Part shown: positions 1 through 7,415 of the stretch, piece after piece | How the letters are laid out: each line of letters begins with the position of its first letter | Numbering within the stretch: position 1 is the stretch's first letter | From: a virus | Taxonomy: Duplodnaviria; Heunggongvirae; Uroviricota; Caudoviricetes | DNA length: 7,415 bases | Direction: 5' to 3' (one strand) | IMG/VR virus record: IMGVR_UViG_2617270973_000012 | Location: 1-7,415 of that record | The notes under the pieces: model-generated | What the model was told of the DNA's origin: nothing | The model's input: the letters and a program-made list of their open reading frames with translations, nothing else | Databases searched by the model: none | Program-made: the position numbers and the translations under genes

Positions 1-708
1 ATGTGGGTCAATAAGTATATTGACGATTGCACTGATGAGGATTTAAACGATCGTGACTTTATTGCATCAGTTGTTGACCGGGCTATTTTTCATTTCGCGA
101 TTAATAGTATATGTAATCTTGGGGATAATAAAGATGCAATGCCCATTGAACAATGTACTTTTGATGTAGAAACTAAGAATGACCTTCCCTCCACGGTTCA
201 GCTATTTTATGAGGAATCTAAGGATAATGAACCTTTAGCGAATATACATTTTCAAGCAATAGGTTCTGGTTTTTTAACGTTTGTTAATGCCTGCCAGGAA
301 CATGATGACAACAGCTTAAAATTATTTGCTTCGCTGTTAATTTCACTTTCATATTCTAGTGCCTACGCAGATTTATCAGAAACAGTGTATATTAATGAAA
401 ATAATGAGAGCTACCTGAAAGCTCAGTTTGAAAAATTATCTCAACGTGATATGAAGAAGTACCTGGGAGAGATGAAGCGTCTGGCTGATGGGGGAGAAAT
501 GAATTTTGATGGCTATCTGGATAAGATGTCACATCTGGTGAATGAAGGAACGCTCGATCCTGATATTTTAAGCAAAATGCGAGATGCTGCACCACAATTA
601 ATTAGCTTCGCGAAGTCGTTTGACCCAACCTCAAAGGAAGAGATTAAAATACTTACAGACACTTCTAAATTAATTTATGATTTGTTCGGGGTTAAATCGG
701 AGAAATAA
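1..708 (+). CDS. Hypothetical protein, 235 aa, AT-rich; possibly the 3' part of a longer gene cut by the window edge
   Basis: Open frame from ATG at position 1 to TAA at 706-708, followed by a hairpin plus T-run terminator. No motif I recognise. Composition is clearly AT-rich compared with the prophage core. Because the ORF begins exactly at the window edge, the true start may lie upstream. Confidence 0.55.
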   Translation: MWVNKYIDDCTDEDLNDRDFIASVVDRAIFHFAINSICNLGDNKDAMPIEQCTFDVETKNDLPSTVQLFYEESKDNEPLANIHFQAIGSGFLTFVNACQEHDDNSLKLFASLLISLSYSSAYADLSETVYINENNESYLKAQFEKLSQRDMKKYLGEMKRLADGGEMNFDGYLDKMSHLVNEGTLDPDILSKMRDAAPQLISFAKSFDPTSKEEIKILTDTSKLIYDLFGVKSEK

Positions 709-749
709 TATGTGAAGTTCTTCGATAGTATGGAAGGCATTATATAAAA

Positions 750-778
750 GGACCCAATATTTATTGGGTTCTTTTTTC
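750..778 (+). terminator. Rho-independent terminator after the 1-708 ORF
   Basis: GGACCCAATA / TATTGGGTTC imperfect inverted repeat (one mismatch or G-U pair) followed directly by TTTTTT (772-777), about 40 nt after the stop codon. Confidence 0.7.
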
Positions 779-1294
779 TCTATCAATGCTATTAGCAGGG
801 AGATATATCACCAGAGTTTAATGTGTGATTTTTTATTTATCGTCGAACCTGGATTGTTTATCATTGGCCTTAACAAAGTTAACGGCTAATAAGATTATTT
901 CCATCACTTCGTGAGAGCTTCATGCCTTGAGAGGATCTCAATTTTCTTTTGCAATGAGACAGGCGCTTCCTGTTGTTATGGTATAGTACCCCGCTATTGA
1001 GCCTCCTGAACAGTGATGCTGAATAACATAACCCCATGATATATCGATAAAATAATCTCTACATTTGAAAATGCACGGTAATTCTGAAATGCAAAAAATC
1101 AACCAAACCAGCGCAATGCCTGAAAAAACTGACGTTCACTGGAGTGGTCGGTTTAGCGTTGCACCAATGCTCGATAGGATGTATCGTTTTTGAAAAACAA
1201 TTGGTTATGTGTTTTGTGGGAGCCTATTGGGAACCTATCAAAAGATTTTTTGTCATAGCAGTGTGAGATGCAAAACACTGTGATGGTCGCTTTG

Positions 1295-1322
1295 TTGACA
1301 TCGCAACTTCTGCAGGTATAAT
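1295..1322 (+). promoter_or_regulatory. Near-consensus sigma70 promoter for the DUF4065/membrane-protein operon
   Basis: TTGACA at 1295-1300, a 16-nt spacer, then TATAAT at 1317-1322; both hexamers match consensus exactly. Predicted transcription start near 1329-1330, giving a roughly 150-nt leader before the ATG at 1480. Confidence 0.7.
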
Positions 1323-1479
1323 TCGCCACCAATTTGTAACCTGTGTATATGTACAGTTCTTTGCTGGTTATAAACACAGTGAATTGCTCTTGCAATCTTC
1401 CAAAATTTTTTTGTTCGTGCTAGGTTGAGATAACAGTGATGATACTGTTTGCACATTCAGTGTAATGAGGAGGGTGGTT

Positions 1480-1953
1480 ATGTACAGCCCGGTACAAATA
1501 GCCAATAAATTCATAACGTTGGGAAACCAACATCATAATCCTCTGACCCACATGCAACTGCAGAAGCTTACTTATATTGCACATGGTTACTATTTAGCAT
1601 TAACAGGTAAGCCTTTGCTCAATGAATGTGTCTCCGCGTGGAAGTACGGTCCAGTTATTCCTGGAATGTACGATGCTTTCAAAGATTATGGGAATAAACC
1701 TGTTACGAATGTAGCAGTAGCTCCTTTTGGTGGCATTGTTACTATGGATCCACAAGCAGAGAGCATTATAGGGGCTGTTTATAAATTTTACGGCTCGAAA
1801 AATGGAATTGAGTTATCAACTCTAACTCATATGCCTGGTACGCCTTGGTCACAAGCTTATAATGGTATTGGCTCGTCAATCATCTCAAATGATGCGATCA
1901 AGGCTTATTATCATGATTTATTGAATAACCGACAGCAATGTCAGGGCCTCTGA
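1480..1953 (+). CDS. Panacea-domain (DUF4065 / COG3600 GepA / SocA-like) protein, putative PanA-type antitoxin, 157 aa
   Basis: The segment LQKLTYIAHGYYLALTGKPLLNECVSAWKYGPVIPGMYDAF resembles the conserved core of DUF4065/Panacea proteins as I recall it. AGGAGG at 1468-1473 lies 6 nt upstream of ATG 1480. The ORF-track start at 1465 is an in-frame ATG sitting inside this ribosome-binding site, so I moved the start to 1480. Stop is TGA at 1951-1953. Confidence 0.6.
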   Translation: MYSPVQIANKFITLGNQHHNPLTHMQLQKLTYIAHGYYLALTGKPLLNECVSAWKYGPVIPGMYDAFKDYGNKPVTNVAVAPFGGIVTMDPQAESIIGAVYKFYGSKNGIELSTLTHMPGTPWSQAYNGIGSSIISNDAIKAYYHDLLNNRQQCQGL

Positions 1954-1975
1954 AAAAGTAATATTCAGGGATGAC

Positions 1976-2524
1976 ATGTCTCACAATTCAGATATCTATA
2001 AACTTATCGGAGCGGCCGCAGGTGTTGAAAATGGTCGCTCTGAAGCATCCTTAAACTCTACTGACAGTCAAGAACAGATTTTTAAATCTGCATTTGAGCC
2101 GTCTAATCATGAGAGCGACGATGATTCTTCTTCAGAAAATAAAGCTATTCTGGAGGCAGAAGAGTTTGGTTCTAATACTGGTGCATTGCATGAGTTTATG
2201 CAGCAGAACAGAATGGACAGTCTTCAAGCTCAGCTTGATATGCTCAAATCACAAGTACGGGATAAGATAGCTGACGCAACTGGTAAAGAAATAGACAATG
2301 AGCTTCGGACAAAAATGGCCTCATTCACGGTTTGGTTTATGTCGTGTTGGTGCTTATTCGTTGTCGCAATGTTTACATCGTTTCTTATTGCACATGAAGG
2401 AAAGCCTCCAGTTGAAGCGATCGTTGCATTACTAGGTACAAGTACAATTAGTATTGTTGGTTTGGTTGGTTTCGTTGTTAGTGGATTGTTCAAATCAAGA
2501 AAAGATAGTGATAAAGAAAAATAA
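1976..2524 (+). CDS. Membrane protein, 182 aa: acidic N-terminal region, coiled-coil-like middle, two C-terminal TM helices; candidate toxin/effector partner of the upstream gene
   Basis: Starts 22 nt after the upstream stop, with a weak GGGA ribosome-binding site. The N-terminus is rich in D/E/S (ESDDDSSSENKAILEAEEF). Two hydrophobic stretches, FTVWFMSCWCLFVVAMFTSFLIA and AIVALLGTSTISIVGLVGFVVSGLF, are followed by a basic tail KSRKDSDKEK. No family recognised. Confidence 0.6.
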   Translation: MSHNSDIYKLIGAAAGVENGRSEASLNSTDSQEQIFKSAFEPSNHESDDDSSSENKAILEAEEFGSNTGALHEFMQQNRMDSLQAQLDMLKSQVRDKIADATGKEIDNELRTKMASFTVWFMSCWCLFVVAMFTSFLIAHEGKPPVEAIVALLGTSTISIVGLVGFVVSGLFKSRKDSDKEK

Positions 2525-2544
2525 CCCGTACATATACGGGTTAT
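2521..2544. terminator. Bidirectional rho-independent terminator between convergent transcription units
   Basis: Perfect 10-bp inverted repeat ATAACCCGTA (2521-2530) / TACGGGTTAT (2535-2544) with loop CATA. An A-run lies upstream (a U-tract for minus-strand transcripts) and a T-rich stretch downstream. It overlaps the TAA stop of the plus-strand gene and sits 14 nt from the stop of the minus-strand PrtN-like gene. Confidence 0.75.
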
Positions 2545-2557
2545 CCATAGTTTTAGT

Positions 2558-2830
2558 TTAGTTATATTTTTGTTTTTCCGTTCTGACTTTTTCCCACTCA
2601 GCTCGCCCTTCTTCCCGTCTTTTGTCAATATATTCCGCAAGATCCTGAATGTTGATGCAGCGTTTTGCTTTTTGTGATGTACCGATGCGATATGTAGGTA
2701 CAGGCAACTTACAAGCGTTTGCTTTTGCTTCTGCTGTGGCTGGACTCATACCAAAGTATTTTTGACTAACTGCTGAGAGTTCAATGTTTGGGGTATTGAA
2801 TTCAGCCATCAGTAAAAACAAGGTGTTCAT
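2558..2830 (-). CDS. PrtN-family / excisionase-like small DNA-binding protein, 90 aa
   Basis: Small basic protein at the distal end of the leftward operon. Sequence MNTLFLLMAEFNTPNIELSAVSQKYFGMSPATAEAKANACKLPVPTYRIG resembles the pyocin-activator PrtN family, often annotated as phage excisionase. I moved the start from the ORF-track GTG at 2857 to ATG at 2828-2830, which has GGAG 6 nt upstream. Confidence 0.55.
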   Translation of the reverse strand: MNTLFLLMAEFNTPNIELSAVSQKYFGMSPATAEAKANACKLPVPTYRIGTSQKAKRCINIQDLAEYIDKRREEGRAEWEKVRTEKQKYN

Positions 2831-2866
2831 AATTTTCTCCATCAAAACCGGCTGCACCCGGGAAAA

Positions 2867-3439
2867 TCATAATTCTGTGCTGGTGGCAGGAATTAGTTTC
2901 TGCCAGATAGCGGAAACATATTTTGCCTGATGACGGGCATCAGCCAGGGCGTTGTGCCGTTCTCCATCGAAAGGCATGTCCATTTTTGGGTCGAATCCGA
3001 TGGAACGCCCAAGCGTAACGATCGTGCGTACATCGTGGTCATTCCAGTACGCCCACGGGCAGATTTGTCCTGCTCGCTCGTAAGCTCCACGTAAAATTAC
3101 GTTGTCGAAGGTGGCCCCGTTACCCCAGACTTTTAAATATTTTGTATTGTCTGCATGCTGATTAATGAAATGGCTCAGTTCAGAGAGTGCATCGCTGATC
3201 GACAAAGTATCATCAATACAGATTGCAGCTCGTGCTTCAGAGCTCTGTTTCAACCACCACAGGATGGTATCGCCGTCAGGTGTAGCTCCTTGCCCCATAG
3301 CACTTTCCAGGCTAACAACCGTATAGAATTCTTGTCCGATGTCTCCGGTTTCTGGAGTGAAGAACACCGCGCCAATGGAAACGATCGGTGCATCCTTATT
3401 TTTCCCCATCGTCTCAAGGTCGATCATTAAGTTATTCAT
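2867..3439 (-). CDS. DnaQ-like DEDDh 3'-5' exonuclease, phage-type, 190 aa
   Basis: Exo I motif IDLETMG, Exo II WGNGATFDNVIL and Exo III HNALADA (H-x4-D) are all present. GGAGG ribosome-binding site. The start ATG overlaps the stop of the upstream gene (TAATG). Confidence 0.7.
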   Translation of the reverse strand: MNNLMIDLETMGKNKDAPIVSIGAVFFTPETGDIGQEFYTVVSLESAMGQGATPDGDTILWWLKQSSEARAAICIDDTLSISDALSELSHFINQHADNTKYLKVWGNGATFDNVILRGAYERAGQICPWAYWNDHDVRTIVTLGRSIGFDPKMDMPFDGERHNALADARHQAKYVSAIWQKLIPATSTEL

Positions 3440-4263
3440 TACTTCACCTCCTGCGGCGGTTCCGGTAGCGGCATCCAGTGGGTTACTTTCAATGCCGGTT
3501 CTTCCCCATCGTCAGTAACTGCCCACCATTTGTTTCTCGAACAATCGTAATATCCTTCGAAGGTATCGCACTCAGTCCAGCCGTAAGACTTACCCCAACA
3601 CCAAACATATTGTTTATCGTTCGGCATTCGCTCACTACAGCTTATCCAACTATCCGGAGTTACCGGATAGTTGCGCATTGCGACCTTTAATGCCTCATAG
3701 AAGCAACCTTTCAGATTGTTGAACTGACGCCCATTAAGAGGACCGTGTTCAGTAAGCATGTTGCGTAATTTCCATGCCGCGTCGTTTACTTCGTTGGATG
3801 ACAGGGGAGGCAACTTGTAAGTTTGGCTTACAGGTTCGGCACCATGAAGCATGGCGCCGCTCCGCTCTATGCCATCCAGCGCGATTCGCAGTGCCTGAAT
3901 TGTGGTAGAGCTATCGTTTGGGGCTATTCCATATCGCTCGAATACAGCTAAATGGTTGCGCATAATCTCAGGCGTAAGCTCTTTGTAAGCATAAGCAAGA
4001 GGCTCTGATGCATTATCCGGCACAACCGACGCAGGCGCGGCAGCATAAACAGGAATAACGTCCGCTTGCTCTTTATTGCTTTCATCCGTTAAAGCCCAGA
4101 ATAATTTCCCGGCCGGATGTTTGAAAATATAAGCAACTGGATCTGCTTCCAGCGATGCCAGTGCAATTTCATAAGCACGGCGCTCAATATTGTCTCGAAC
4201 GTCCAAGCTGCCTATGCGCTCTTTGATTTCTTTAATCAGTTCTTTGTCGGTAAAATTGGTCAT
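3439..4263 (-). CDS. Phage protein with C-terminal DUF551-like domain, 274 aa
   Basis: The C-terminus is Trp/Cys-rich and ends VTHWMPLPEPP, typical of DUF551 phage proteins as I recall them. AAGGAG ribosome-binding site 6 nt upstream of ATG 4261-4263. N-terminal half not recognised. Confidence 0.5.
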   Translation of the reverse strand: MTNFTDKELIKEIKERIGSLDVRDNIERRAYEIALASLEADPVAYIFKHPAGKLFWALTDESNKEQADVIPVYAAAPASVVPDNASEPLAYAYKELTPEIMRNHLAVFERYGIAPNDSSTTIQALRIALDGIERSGAMLHGAEPVSQTYKLPPLSSNEVNDAAWKLRNMLTEHGPLNGRQFNNLKGCFYEALKVAMRNYPVTPDSWISCSERMPNDKQYVWCWGKSYGWTECDTFEGYYDCSRNKWWAVTDDGEEPALKVTHWMPLPEPPQEVK

Positions 4264-4273
4264 GTGTTACTCC

Positions 4274-4537
4274 TTAACCCGCAGTGCTTTCAACTGACGA
4301 GGGGAACAAAATCTTTTCATCAAATCCGGCATTCATATCATGGACAGCAACACACCAATCCATTGACGAACGATTATCAAGAGCCTCCATGATTTCATCC
4401 ATGCGGCGTAGGTCATACAGGTAAATATTTTTATCGCCAATGGTGTAAAAACCAATTTTTTTCGGTGATGGACAGCGATCAATAACGTCCTGTAATTCGT
4501 TCAACCATGCCTGTTCTTTTTTTGTCAAAGTTGCCAT
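4274..4537 (-). CDS. Hypothetical phage early protein, 87 aa
   Basis: ATG at 4535-4537 is preceded by AAGGA. The ORF-track extension to 4627 would overlap the upstream gene and has no ribosome-binding site. Stop TAA at 4274-4276. Confidence 0.5.
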   Translation of the reverse strand: MATLTKKEQAWLNELQDVIDRCPSPKKIGFYTIGDKNIYLYDLRRMDEIMEALDNRSSMDWCVAVHDMNAGFDEKILFPSSVESTAG

Positions 4538-4538
4538 A

Positions 4539-4757
4539 TCAGTTTTCCTTATACGGATTAATTTTATTGTGCAGTGTGTTGAACGACGCCCATACCACGT
4601 CGTTATACAATTCAATAACTGGCTCAATTATTTTCCCGATTGCCCAGACAAAAATTAGCGGGGATATCGGTATCATCAACACGATAAACAGAATGAGAAA
4701 CAGGAATTCTGTCGTTCTACTCTTTCGCGGATATTCTTTTCTGAATAATGTCGGCAC
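4539..4757 (-). CDS. Small single-TM membrane protein, 72 aa, GTG start
   Basis: AAGGAG lies 7 nt upstream of GTG 4755-4757. Hydrophobic helix FLFLILFIVLMIPISPLIFVWAIG. Stop-start spacing with neighbouring genes is 1-2 nt. Confidence 0.45.
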   Translation of the reverse strand: MPTLFRKEYPRKSRTTEFLFLILFIVLMIPISPLIFVWAIGKIIEPVIELYNDVVWASFNTLHNKINPYKEN

Positions 4758-4758
4758 A

Positions 4759-5091
4759 TCACTCTCCTTTGATGCGAATGCCAGCGACGCGTAGTGCGTG
4801 TTCTAAGTCAATCAGGCAAAGCCAACTGCCATTTTCTTTAGGTATCATGACATGTCGCTTATCAGCATTTATTGGGTGCCCATATCGAAGGTCGTAGCGA
4901 GTCGGTAATTGAACTTCCCTCGCTTCCAGTTCTGTAATGCGTTTGTTTTTAGCTTCTAGTTCATCCAGCAGCGCCAGCACAACCTGCGGTGTGACTTTCA
5001 TACGAAATGCCAGCAATTTTTGTGGTGTGGCTACTATTTTTATTGCTTCTGCCGCCTCACGCAGTGCCTGATAGTTAATTTTGGTTGTCAT
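4759..5091 (-). CDS. Hypothetical phage early protein, 110 aa, coiled-coil segment
   Basis: ATG 5089-5091 overlaps the upstream stop (ATGA). GAGGTGG ribosome-binding site. Heptad-like segment LLDELEAKNKRITELEAREVQL. Family not securely recognised. Confidence 0.5.
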   Translation of the reverse strand: MTTKINYQALREAAEAIKIVATPQKLLAFRMKVTPQVVLALLDELEAKNKRITELEAREVQLPTRYDLRYGHPINADKRHVMIPKENGSWLCLIDLEHALRVAGIRIKGE

Positions 5092-5966
5092 GCCACCACC
5101 TCTTCGAATTTCAACTCCAATTGATCACCCCAGATTTCACATGACTCTGAACACGAGCCGGTATCGAATCGCCTGGCTTGCACCATCGCCTGATACAAAT
5201 TTCTGTAGTCGCTGTCGGCATACATTCTGGCAATCCCGTCAAGACTCAGATGACCACGGTACATAACGTCTTTATCTGTCTTTCGGTGACCATCCCGGAC
5301 GTGTTTACCTGTAACCAGCTCATTAAAAACTCTCATCAGACCAGGTTCGTCTTTACATGCAAGCCCCAGCTTTTGCGTGGACTTTTTGATGCAGAAAACA
5401 CAGTTCCCGAGGTGCTCCGGGATTTGCAAATCAAAAGGTTGTTTATGCCACCACCGGATAACATCCGACTTATCAAAATCAGATAGCTCGGCAAGATACC
5501 GGACGCCTGATTTCGGTTTCAGCCTACGAGGTTCGTCTGCACGAATACCCAGCCATGTGATGTAATTCCCTCGTCCGAAATGGTCATCGCAGTATTTTGT
5601 GAAGGGGGTGAGTTTTAATCTGTCAGTGCAGAACGCGCCGCCGATGTATGGCGTGCCATATTTTTTTACCATGTCCATAAACGGTTTAAGCACCGGCATT
5701 CGCGTCTGAATATCCTTTGGTTCCCATTCCGTATAACCATTTGGCTGCCCAAGCTCTGGATTTATATCGACCTGCAACACAGTTAGCGGTATGCCCCAGA
5801 ACTTCACAACCTCCCGAATAAAGCGGTATGTCAGCGGATGTTCGCAACCGGTATCCATAAAGATGTAGCAGACGTTATTACCAGCCTTTCTTTGTTCTTC
5901 CATCAGGTGAACAAGATATGCAGATGTTCTCCCGCCAGAAAAACTAACTACATGAGTTATGCACAT
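5088..5966 (-). CDS. PAPS-reductase-family (PF01507-like) PP-loop protein, 292 aa
   Basis: PP-loop-like SFSGGRTS near the N-terminus. The segment IFMDTGCEHPLTYRFIREV parallels the CysH-family motif (TDTG...ETYRFI). Common in lambdoid prophage early regions. Confidence 0.7.
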   Translation of the reverse strand: MCITHVVSFSGGRTSAYLVHLMEEQRKAGNNVCYIFMDTGCEHPLTYRFIREVVKFWGIPLTVLQVDINPELGQPNGYTEWEPKDIQTRMPVLKPFMDMVKKYGTPYIGGAFCTDRLKLTPFTKYCDDHFGRGNYITWLGIRADEPRRLKPKSGVRYLAELSDFDKSDVIRWWHKQPFDLQIPEHLGNCVFCIKKSTQKLGLACKDEPGLMRVFNELVTGKHVRDGHRKTDKDVMYRGHLSLDGIARMYADSDYRNLYQAMVQARRFDTGSCSESCEIWGDQLELKFEEVVA

Positions 5967-6493
5967 TTGCGTAATTCCGATAACTCGTTGAAGCGTGCCA
6001 TAAACATCCCGTAGGCATGGCCCGGTGCCAGTGGAATCACGTTGAACATCTCTGTTGCCGGGATGCCTTCTAGTACAGGCCAGAAAGAGCCATCATCAAG
6101 CCCGAGATCGCGGCGTTCGGTTGCCAGCATGATGAGATCGGCATATTTCACGGGTGTACTCATAACCGGGGGTAACCCGTATTTCTCACGGATTACGGCG
6201 TCTATTTTTTCTTCCATCCGTTTATAGTCAGGAAGAAGGCGTTTCAGTGGAGCGGGAATATCCTGGCAATACGCTTCTGTTGCATCATGCATTAACGCTT
6301 CAAAAGCAAATTCCTGCGGCACCAGCTGGCTGCAAAGCACCGCATGCTGGGCGACACTGTAGAAGTGTGAAAGATGTCCTGCAAAGCGACAGATATTTGA
6401 AAGGGAAACCGCGATATCGTTAATAACGATGTCGTCTTTATTTATCTTGTCATAATAAAAATGCTTCCCGGAAAAAGTTTTAATAAATGACAT
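5957..6493 (-). CDS. yfdR: HD-domain phosphohydrolase (YfbR/YfdR-like 5'-deoxynucleotidase family), 178 aa
   Basis: His...His-Asp signature (SVAQHAV ... LMHDATEAY). Length and position next to a DUF2303 gene match CPS-53 yfdR as I recall it. I moved the start from the ORF-track GTG at 6520 to ATG 6491-6493, which has GGAG 6 nt upstream. Confidence 0.6.
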   Translation of the reverse strand: MSFIKTFSGKHFYYDKINKDDIVINDIAVSLSNICRFAGHLSHFYSVAQHAVLCSQLVPQEFAFEALMHDATEAYCQDIPAPLKRLLPDYKRMEEKIDAVIREKYGLPPVMSTPVKYADLIMLATERRDLGLDDGSFWPVLEGIPATEMFNVIPLAPGHAYGMFMARFNELSELRKCA

Positions 6494-6586
6494 TTTGTTC
6501 TCCACGTATATGCGCTGCACCGCGCTGAATTCTGGTAAAAGGAAGCCCTCACCATCCGGCGATTATTGAGTAAATTATGTTTCCAT

Positions 6587-6608
6587 AAATGCCCCCGCAG
6601 GGGCATTT
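6587..6608. other. Perfect 9-bp-stem hairpin in the intergenic region between the DUF2303 and HD genes
   Basis: AAATGCCCC (6587-6595), loop CGCA, GGGGCATTT (6600-6608). No clean U-tract on either strand, so a terminator role is uncertain. Confidence 0.4.
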
Positions 6609-6620
6609 GCAGTAATGAAA

Positions 6621-7415
6621 TCAGGCGGTGAAAGTACCAATAAAGGTTTCTACTTTGCTGTCTTTAAATTTCTCAACAAGCAGATCACGAAATTCGTTAG
6701 CCATTTCTTCCTGCACCGCTTCCAGCTGAATAATGCGCAGAACCAGTACAGGACGATCGCCAGTGATAATGCTGAGGCGTAATTTAAACGGACGTTCTTT
6801 CAGGCCTTCAAACGGAACGCATTTAAATTCAAATGCCACTGGCATAATGTCTTTGGTCTTCGCTTCGACAGACTCCATCAGAGAGCGTTTGCCGCTGAAG
6901 TCATTGTCTTCAAAATCAGCGGTCTGGTTCGCTTCAATTGTGATTTTACGGACCGCCGCAGCCGCTTTGGTTGCCTGAATGGCGTCACCATTAGCATCAA
7001 AGCCCACAAGGTAGTCGGCCCAGTCTTCAATCCATTCTGCCAGTGACTTCTGGGAGTTACGCTCGCCATTAACAGACAACAGAGCAGAAAACGGTGCTGT
7101 CTTTTTCAGTTTGAGGGTGGCGGTGTTATCTGCGTGACCTGGTTCATCAATAGTCCCCAGGTTAAGCACACTGACGGCTCGCATATTATCGGCATCGATA
7201 AAGCAGCGGGTGCCTTCATCTGCAAGATCTTTAGAATAACGGGTAAAGTCATCGATGCTGGCAGTGGAAAGCGCACCACGGAAACGGAAGCGATTTAAAT
7301 TAAATTTTTCCAGATCATGAATGCGGAAATTCTCAGGCAATGCCACAGCATCGGCACCAATCTTACTAATAATTTCATTAACACCCTGAGCAGAAATAAG
7401 GGCATGGATTTGATT
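6621..7415 (-). CDS. yfdQ: DUF2303-family protein (YfdQ-like), 5' end beyond the window
   Basis: I translated the minus-strand frame beyond the ORF-track GTG at 7346 and it stays open to the window edge (…[30 protein letters not shown]…). The resulting length of at least 264 aa is consistent with the roughly 274-aa YfdQ family. Stop at 6621. Confidence 0.55.

Follow-up and report, generated by a model that had tools for sequence, protein, structure and literature searches.

Which part of an AT-rich prophage end is cargo, which is phage backbone and which belongs to the host is the question raised by the first 2.5 kb of the window, the 7,415-nt stretch of caudoviricete virus DNA analysed here (IMGVR_UViG_2617270973_000012, positions 1 to 7,415). 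The preliminary description had read 1-2550 as a single accessory island abutting the prophage core, with the attachment site and the integrase gene outside the window, to its left. The region is instead very probably a composite, made up of a host flank (1-1174), an attachment junction and arm in dusA, and an exchangeable PanAT cassette (1237-2567) that lies before a prtN/xis-like operon (Table 1).

Table 1. Features of the left end of the window and the evidence from which each was assigned.
Feature	Position	Strand	Basis
yjbM (DUF2713), host chromosomal gene outside the prophage	1..708	+	Pfam DUF2713 4e-166, full length
Terminator-like hairpin behind yjbM (host)	746..775	+	13-bp stem and T run; -15.2 kcal/mol
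Displaced 5' end of host dusA, 40-aa remnant	1071..1193	+	Same as K-12 dusA start to 1174
att crossover core ATGCTCGA, int-distal junction of the prophage	1167..1174		Three-way alignment
Conserved phage att arm with tandem GGGARCCT repeats, candidate arm-type integrase sites	1175..1236		
Exchangeable cargo cassette: candidate promoter, panA, panT, hairpin	1237..2567	+	blastn against other-cargo prophages
Sigma-70 consensus promoter match, TTGACA-16 nt-TATAAT, 12/12	1295..1322	+	Pattern match
panA, predicted Panacea-domain antitoxin, 157 aa	1480..1953	+	Pfam SocA_Panacea 6e-18
panT, predicted membrane toxin, 182 aa	1976..2524	+	phrog_13343 2e-113; identical to WP_000019187.1
Hairpin between panT and the prtN-like gene, part of the cassette	2521..2544		Perfect 10-bp inverted repeat, 4-nt loop
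PrtN-family gene, excisionase-like, phage backbone and not cargo	2558..2830	-	Pfam PyocinActivator 4e-23

Positions 1-1174 are native Escherichia coli chromosome, comprising yjbM with its terminator, codons 1-35 of dusA and the spacer between the two genes. This segment is matched in 4,383 of 5,426 complete E. coli genomes, and in genomes with an intact dusA the match to the window ends exactly at 1174; in K-12-type genomes without the prophage, the order at the empty site is zur, yjbM, dusA, pspG. Beyond its 35 native codons the reading frame of the dusA remnant enters phage DNA and stops at 1191-1193, and RefSeq annotates the equivalent remnant as a partial tRNA-dihydrouridine synthase pseudogene. 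The view that all of 1-2550 is one horizontally acquired AT-rich island inserted at the end of the prophage, to the right of an att site and int outside the window, draws on a uniformly low GC content, on the plus-strand orientation of every long open reading frame in the interval, and on the match of yjbM to a phage protein family, phrog_29005. It is nonetheless almost certainly incorrect, because thousands of prophage-free genomes have 1-1174 beside an intact dusA, the att crossover falls at 1167-1174, yjbM is preceded by zur, yjbJ, dinF and lexA rather than by int, and int sits at the far end of related prophages. The place of the 1-708 reading frame in prophage-free genomes likewise rules it out as phage cargo, and its phrog_29005 match is best explained by prophage predictions running over into the host flank.

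A temperate phage that integrates in dusA has its int-distal junction at 1167-1236, which places an att site inside the window. When the window junction was aligned with both the far junction and the empty site of K-12, the switch point fell within ATGCTCGA, and three deposited phage genomes begin at window positions 1167, 1173 and 1174. An imperfect direct repeat is common to both junctions, with 21 of 24 positions identical over 1151-1174 when the far junction is taken from a relative. The 62-bp arm on the phage side adjoins the dusA remnant in 742 of the 5,426 genomes, irrespective of the cargo behind it. Within the arm GGGARCCT occurs twice (1218-1225 and 1229-1236) against 0.21 expected occurrences, and two further copies lie in the int-proximal arm; these repeats may serve as arm-type integrase sites. 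A repeat search over 1100-2600 returned only short two-copy matches apart from the hairpin at 2521-2544. ARAGORN found no tRNA or tmRNA, and Rfam, run over the whole window at a permissive E-value, gave just two sub-threshold chance matches, results that exclude a tRNA-type att site and a known small RNA.

In the proposed mechanism, a dusA-specific tyrosine integrase of the temperate phage would recombine within the crossover core, insertion would displace the native dusA 5' end to the int-distal junction, and the junction of the excised phage circle would read ...CCTATGCTCGA joined to TAGGATG.... Elements with dusA-specific integrases insert in the 5' end of dusA and leave an orphaned native 5' fragment, and they carry a replacement 5' end, semi-conserved, imperfect direct repeats of ~21 bp at both junctions and, frequently, prtN (Farrugia 2015, PMC4482086). 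The window, with its remnant at 1071-1174, fits these elements with nothing essential different, and contains the int-distal junction alone.

Because the exact early-left operon of the window has no full match in complete E. coli genomes (best coverage 86%), the far end of the source prophage, which lies beyond the window, and with it the position of int, was read from close relatives. In related complete prophages int is found ~39 kb off at the opposite end, adjoining a rebuilt dusA, and the phage would thus bring both a replacement dusA 5' end and int to the far junction; a replacement 5' end and a tyrosine integrase are seen in the close relatives L003 (Pfam Phage_integrase) and PhiR47_1. 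The order in NZ_CP128581.1 runs from the dusA remnant through panA, panT and prtN to tail genes and ends with dinI, int and the rebuilt dusA, while the PhiR47_1 record has panAT at its start and int at its end; the integrases of these two prophages are 98.9% identical. The earlier placing of the cargo between int/attP and the xis-like gene is true of the circular phage map, as in PhiR47_1; upstream of the window, no integrase gene is expected. Since attP separates int from the xis-like gene, integration leaves the two at opposite prophage ends, which is also the layout of KplE1 (CPS-53) with its intS and torI excisionase genes. KplE1 also shares yfdP/Q/R-type genes with the window, but its integration site and excisionase family differ.

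The low GC content that had suggested an island is real, at 38.4% over 1-2550 against 46.1% over 2551-7415 (two-proportion z = -6.4), but its boundary is not at 2550. Sliding-window GC is 0.33-0.41 to ~2850 and 0.47-0.51 beyond that, and the best single change point by maximum likelihood is 2847, the prtN/exo boundary, so that the minus-strand prtN-like gene is counted in the AT-rich block. By gene, GC is 0.364 for yjbM, 0.405 for panA and 0.393 for panT, which bears out an estimate by eye of 36-40% for the left coding sequence, and 0.403 for the prtN-like gene; the phage operon, estimated at about 50%, computes to 46-48%. Third-position GC (GC3) is 0.31-0.35 on the left side and 0.46-0.50 in exo, DUF551, the PAPS reductase gene, yfdR and yfdQ. 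An AT-rich patch is also present inside the phage operon, at ~4200-4950 (orf117, GC 0.40). At a GC of 0.392, the cassette is not distinct in composition from the adjoining conserved prtN gene, and the insertion is not marked by low GC, since host flank, cassette and prtN are equally AT-rich. One common cause of this shared composition in place of coincidence, for example silencing-prone AT-rich DNA gained together, would suit a change point that takes in all three parts; it is very improbable, however, given that the three have independent distributions (~4,300, 79 and many hundreds of genomes) and that alternative cassettes and prtN move independently of yjbM.

The limits of the cargo are given by alignment with related prophages, a comparison that the preliminary description had proposed; between flanks that are conserved throughout, these prophages differ in their cargo. 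In blastn comparisons with other-cargo prophages, homology stops at 1235/1236 and restarts at 2568/2569, and gene content differs between flanks kept to 1236 and from 2568, as in a cargo hotspot. Judged by these alignments, 1237-2567 is a true exchangeable cargo cassette, moron-like and adjoining the xis-like gene at the prophage end, and it is the only exchangeable part of the interval once taken for an island. At least four cassette alleles occupy the slot, with genome counts of 79 (the window cassette, at one copy per genome), 357, 207 and 46, or ~690 E. coli genomes to be set against the 742 that carry the att arm and the 5,426 complete genomes searched; the slot, with its four or more alternative cassettes, is found in ~13% of complete E. 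coli genomes. Three of the four alleles are mutually unrelated Panacea pairs, and allele B (357 genomes) is a non-Panacea pair. The two Panacea pairs other than that of the window are alleles C (190 aa + 128 aa) and D (193 aa + 153 aa), in each of which the shorter protein is an uncharacterised partner; the supplement of Kurata 2022 lists neither of their Panacea proteins. PADLOC-DB 2.0 gave no significant match to the cargo of alleles B-D, and NCBIfam nothing useful. Every alternative cassette has a hairpin of its own at the equivalent relative position.

By comparison, the prtN-like gene adjoins every cassette allele and is kept at 92-93% identity. Its longest open reading frame reaches 2857, it matches phrog_1300 'excisionase' at 6e-40, and prtN homologues occur in 60 of 94 dusA-specific islands (PMC4482086). 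Among sequenced phages, PhiR47_1 (PV340566.1) carries a cassette 100% identical to 1237-2567, with its genes annotated as PanA and PanT, and the Stx2 phages 1720a-02 and phiSTEC1575-Stx2k carry one ~96% identical. All three share the prtN, exo, yfdR and yfdQ backbone with the window, and their records begin at the same att position. They nevertheless cover only ~50% of the window, whose early-left operon is a different mosaic that additionally contains orf117, a PAPS-reductase gene and an ead-like gene. For PhiR47, a literature search turned up only a defence study in which it served as a test phage, and nothing on PanAT function.

The cassette is predicted to encode a PanA-PanT type II toxin-antitoxin pair, one that has already been characterised. 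PanA, preceded by a GAGGAGG ribosome-binding site at 1468-1474, contains a Panacea domain (DUF4065, PF13274; 66.2 bits against a cutoff of 25.7, E = 6e-18) and is identical both to WP_000287252.1 and to the PanA annotated in PhiR47_1. It scores 97 bits against an equivalog cutoff of 190 in NF047745 (SocA antitoxin, type VI TA), and was rejected as a SocA equivalog with which it has only the domain in common. PanT is identical to the annotated PanT of PhiR47_1, and NCBIfam offered nothing useful for it. Its two C-terminal hydrophobic helices (Kyte-Doolittle peaks centred at 123-131 and 154-163) follow an acidic region, residues 1-112, with 22 D/E against 10 K/R, and both hydropathy and N-terminal charge agree with the membrane-targeting PanT cluster T3.

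WP_000287252.1 is the E. coli PanA that was validated against a pore-forming membrane toxin; in the pair from E. coli STEC O31, PanT depolarises and permeabilises the membrane, and the toxicity of the pair is neutralised by PanA (Kurata 2022, Table 1 and text, PMC8832971). The window has the identical PanA, the same order of antitoxin then toxin and the same 22-nt gap as the published pair, and the STEC O31 PanT, of toxin cluster T3, has, like the window PanT, a charged N-terminal region and transmembrane helices at its C-terminus (PMC8832971). The two toxins differ in accession, WP_000019187.1 in the window against WP_000019185.1 in the experiments, and are probably allelic, judging by accession, neighbours and cluster. 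Anatomy, boundaries, sequence identities and cassette polymorphism come from the present analysis; toxicity, neutralisation, depolarisation and permeabilisation come from the published allelic pair. By analogy, PanT would enter the inner membrane via its two C-terminal helices, form pores and depolarise the cell, and PanA, a stand-alone Panacea domain, would neutralise it, presumably through direct binding; the published pull-downs were made without the E. coli pair (PMC8832971). The same publication marks the locus 'NotPhage' in its table, whereas here and in all genomes inspected it is the edge of a dusA prophage.

The promoter and terminator of the cassette are candidate elements recognised as pattern matches. 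The plus-strand genes do converge on the minus-strand excisionase-like gene at the hairpin 2521-2544, for which RNA folding gives -12.7 kcal/mol on the plus strand and -14.3 on the minus strand. Its description as a bidirectional terminator holds for the perfect hairpin and for the T run on the minus strand, which is good (TTTTTCTTT), but less so for the plus strand, where the T run is poor (CCATAGTTTT). Over 775-2521, terminator-like sites were looked for on the plus strand and none was found. In a lysogen the cassette may be expressed from its own promoter, perhaps aided by read-through transcription that starts at the orphaned dusA promoter, and the hairpin would set it apart from the converging prtN/xis-like early operon.

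The cassette could benefit the prophage through abortive-infection defence, through stabilisation or through both, a role that we infer because PADLOC-DB 2.0 defence models have no significant match to PanA or PanT and neither of the Panacea papers searched reports a phage-defence experiment on this pair. That the main role is anti-phage defence, with PanA sensing an infecting phage and freeing PanT so that the lysogen dies before the invader replicates, is a tentative but reasonable possibility. It is consistent with a hyper-variable slot adjoining attP, in which three of the four or more alleles are Panacea pairs, and with a consensus promoter of the cassette's own that would suit expression in the lysogen; hyper-variable cargo slots are the typical pattern of phage defence hotspots. 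Panacea has also been proposed as a sensor domain, and toxin-antitoxin systems have been linked to defence (Ernits 2023), points that have to be weighed against the silence of both PADLOC and the Panacea papers. Rather unlikely is a main role in addiction, whereby loss of the prophage would remove a PanA that would be labile and leave residual PanT to kill the cell. Such behaviour is classical for type II pairs on mobile elements, and the cassette, found once per genome, suits it by lying at the outermost edge of the element, yet many related prophages lack a Panacea pair altogether, namely those with allele B. More speculative still, and to be regarded as doubtful, is the proposal that the attP-prtN/xis slot of dusA coliphages is a dedicated, hairpin-bounded exchange site for lysogen-expressed immunity modules, with the three Panacea pairs and the non-Panacea pair as competitors, in which the PanAT of the window would act in abortive-infection defence and have its expression tied to integration by read-through from the orphaned dusA promoter.

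The findings on this region are already known, and current understanding is left unchanged. A plausible but wrong boundary has been corrected, in that low GC alone had fused the host flank and the att junction with the cargo and one gene of the backbone, and the published E. coli PanAT pair is now placed at the edge of inducible dusA prophages, Stx2 phages included. The chief use of the result lies in annotation and as a pointer to the two Panacea partner proteins.

The left part of the window consists of known components, namely the host gene yjbM, a dusA remnant, a dusA-type attachment junction and a PanAT toxin-antitoxin pair (Panacea-domain antitoxin PanA, membrane toxin PanT) in a polymorphic cargo slot. 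In a megablast search of 1-2900, matches were found in 4,383 of 5,426 complete E. coli genomes, and in those with an intact dusA the match covers 1-1174 and ends at 1174. Because the matches end there, and because a K-12-type strain possesses the order zur, yjbM, dusA and pspG with no phage genes, sequence comparison identifies 1-1174 as native chromosome, not island. The host yjbM also matches phage family phrog_29005 (6e-165), which probably arose from prophage predictions overshooting into the host flank at the dusA site. In strain 20Ec-P-124 (L011:3283-3562), yjbM is absent, no dusA remnant is annotated and the sequence left of the junction resembles the phage-type dusA 5' copy; this flank points to either a deletion or an element in tandem.

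Features of the left region and alleles of its cargo slot (a genome is counted if its match spans 80% or more of the cassette)
Feature	Window position	Strand	Remarks
yjbM	1-708		full-length DUF2713 protein, E. coli gene
Displaced dusA start	1071-1193		opens with DusA codons 1-35
Crossover	1167-1174		within ATGCTCGA
Int-distal arm	1175-1236		conserved phage att DNA
Tandem GGGARCCT repeats	1218-1236		in int-distal arm
Promoter	1295-1322	+	sequence pattern, consensus match 12/12
panA	1480-1953	+	preceded by GAGGAGG; Panacea domain
panT	1976-2524	+	product WP_000019187.1
Hairpin	2521-2544		perfect 10-bp inverted repeat, 4-nt loop
prtN-like gene	2558-2830	-	PrtN family, excisionase-like
Allele A	1237-2567		panA + panT; 79 genomes
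Allele B			177-aa (phrog_4350) + 57-aa proteins, no Pfam family; commonest, 357 genomes
Allele C			190-aa Panacea + 128-aa (phrog_19071) + 57-aa proteins; 207 genomes
Allele D			193-aa Panacea + 153-aa (no family) proteins; 46 genomes

The junction was delimited by aligning the window with the empty site of K-12 and with the opposite end of a related prophage, that of NZ_CP128581.1. The window tracks host sequence as far as ...CCAATGCTCGA and diverges after it, while at the far junction a diverged, phage-borne dusA 5' copy runs up to ...CCTATGCTCGA, with host sequence beyond; these switch points place the crossover inside ATGCTCGA. Three phage genomes in the databases support this independently, since their records start at window 1167, 1173 and 1174. 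An imperfect repeat (21/24 positions identical) is common to both junctions. Such behaviour is that described for dusA-specific integrase elements, with a native 5' remnant, an element-supplied replacement 5' end and semi-conserved direct repeats, and 60 of 94 of these elements carry a prtN homologue (PMC4482086). Phage DNA opens with the 62-bp int-distal arm, which adjoins the dusA remnant in 742 genomes. Its tandem GGGARCCT repeats recur twice in the int-proximal arm of the related prophage, as two GGGAACCT copies (L003 ~14595-14614, reverse strand); both sets are candidate arm-type sites for integrase binding.

The NZ_CP128581.1 prophage starts with the dusA remnant, panA, panT, prtN and exo, followed by regulatory, lysis, head and tail genes, an invertase, dinI, a tyrosine integrase and the restored dusA. 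In the PhiR47_1 record, panA and panT are the first genes and the integrase, 98.9% identical to that of NZ_CP128581.1, is the last. Since int and panA/panT occupy opposite record ends, attP separates int from the cargo/xis-like side in the circular phage, and integration puts the two at opposite prophage ends. The preliminary description had placed the cargo between the xis-like gene and an integrase and attachment site presumed to lie outside the window. That order fits the circular map, but not the window, where the attachment site lies inside; nor is an integrase expected to the left, as related prophages have it at the far end beside the restored dusA.

The comparison with related prophages that the preliminary description proposed revealed other cargo between conserved flanks. 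In pairwise blastn, homology stops at 1235/1236 and restarts at 2568/2569, a few codons into the 3' end of the prtN-like gene, and the whole 1175-1479 stretch occurs in only 79 genomes, versus 742 for 1175-1236. Cargo insertion at the prophage end is thus retained as a moron-type slot at 1237-2567, and not as an island spanning 1-2550. Four alleles were found in this slot, which holds at least three cassettes besides that of the window (L010:3562-4617, L011:3563-5021 and L013:3563-4734). The Panacea proteins of alleles A, C and D share only short alignments (26-111 residues, ~31-33% identity) and their partners are unrelated to one another; the 128-aa and 153-aa partners are candidate toxins. 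Each allele possesses its own hairpin at an equal relative position (equivalents in L010, L011 and L013), and the convergent terminator seems to be a constant of the slot itself, not the property of a single cassette. Every such hairpin is of the AACCC...GGGTT type and sits directly ahead of the prtN-like gene's 3' end. The window's hairpin had been read as a bidirectional terminator; its repeat is perfect, but a good T run is present on the minus strand only.

The AT-richness of the left block is real and well above chance, as computed profiles confirm. Sliding GC is 0.33-0.41 over 1 to ~2850 and 0.47-0.51 directly beyond, overall GC is 38.4% (1-2550) versus 46.1% in the remainder of the window (z = -6.4), and third-codon-position GC is 0.31-0.35 in the left genes versus 0.46-0.50 in most minus-strand genes. 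The proposed limit at 2550 shifts, however, to a best single change point of 2847, which therefore brings the prtN-like gene (40.3% GC) into the AT-rich block, and the minus-strand operon, put at about 50% GC, computes at 46-48%. A second AT-rich patch (~40% GC) at ~4200-4950 within this early operon, comprising a 117-aa ORF (phrog_1714, no Pfam match) and a 130-bp gap, is probably another mosaic insert. Judged by its sequence matches, the early-operon part, 2551-7415, is highly mosaic; its early-left gene combination has no exact counterpart in complete E. coli genomes (best coverage 86%).

Kurata et al. 2022 (PMC8832971) validated an E. coli STEC O31 pair whose antitoxin, WP_000287252.1, is identical to the window's PanA. 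Its partner toxin is toxic and neutralised, shuts down transcription, translation and replication together, and depolarises the membrane with SYTOX Green entry, indicating large pores; direct PanA-PanT binding was found by pull-down for five other pairs, the STEC O31 pair not among them (PMC8832971). Gene order, antitoxin then toxin, and the 22-nt spacer equal those of the window (PMC8832971 supplement); the toxin tested was WP_000019185.1, of which the window's PanT is an allele. This PanT is acidic in its N-terminal part and contains two hydrophobic helices. Both proteins are identical to those annotated PanA and PanT in PhiR47_1, where the cassette DNA is 100% identical, and a recent study of defence employs PhiR47.1 as a live phage.

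In lysogens, the consensus promoter would drive the panAT operon. Read-through from the orphaned dusA promoter may also enter the cassette, as suggested by a scan of plus strand 775-2521 that found no terminator-like site. Some 150 nt (1329-1479) separate the promoter from panA, with short inverted repeats (e.g. 1270-1282 with 1375-1387), and PanA has no DNA-binding domain. PADLOC models gave no match for the cassette proteins, and the two Panacea papers contain no report of the pair acting in defence. The pair may serve abortive-infection defence and/or prophage stabilisation.

The validated E. coli pair is flagged 'NotPhage' (PMC8832971, supplementary file 2); all inspected genomes have it at the edge of a dusA prophage, and so do three phage records, two of which are of Stx2 phages. 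As a whole the finding is ordinary and already described; what is mildly new, and descriptive only, is the four-allele slot and the placement of a 'NotPhage' E. coli PanAT at a prophage edge.
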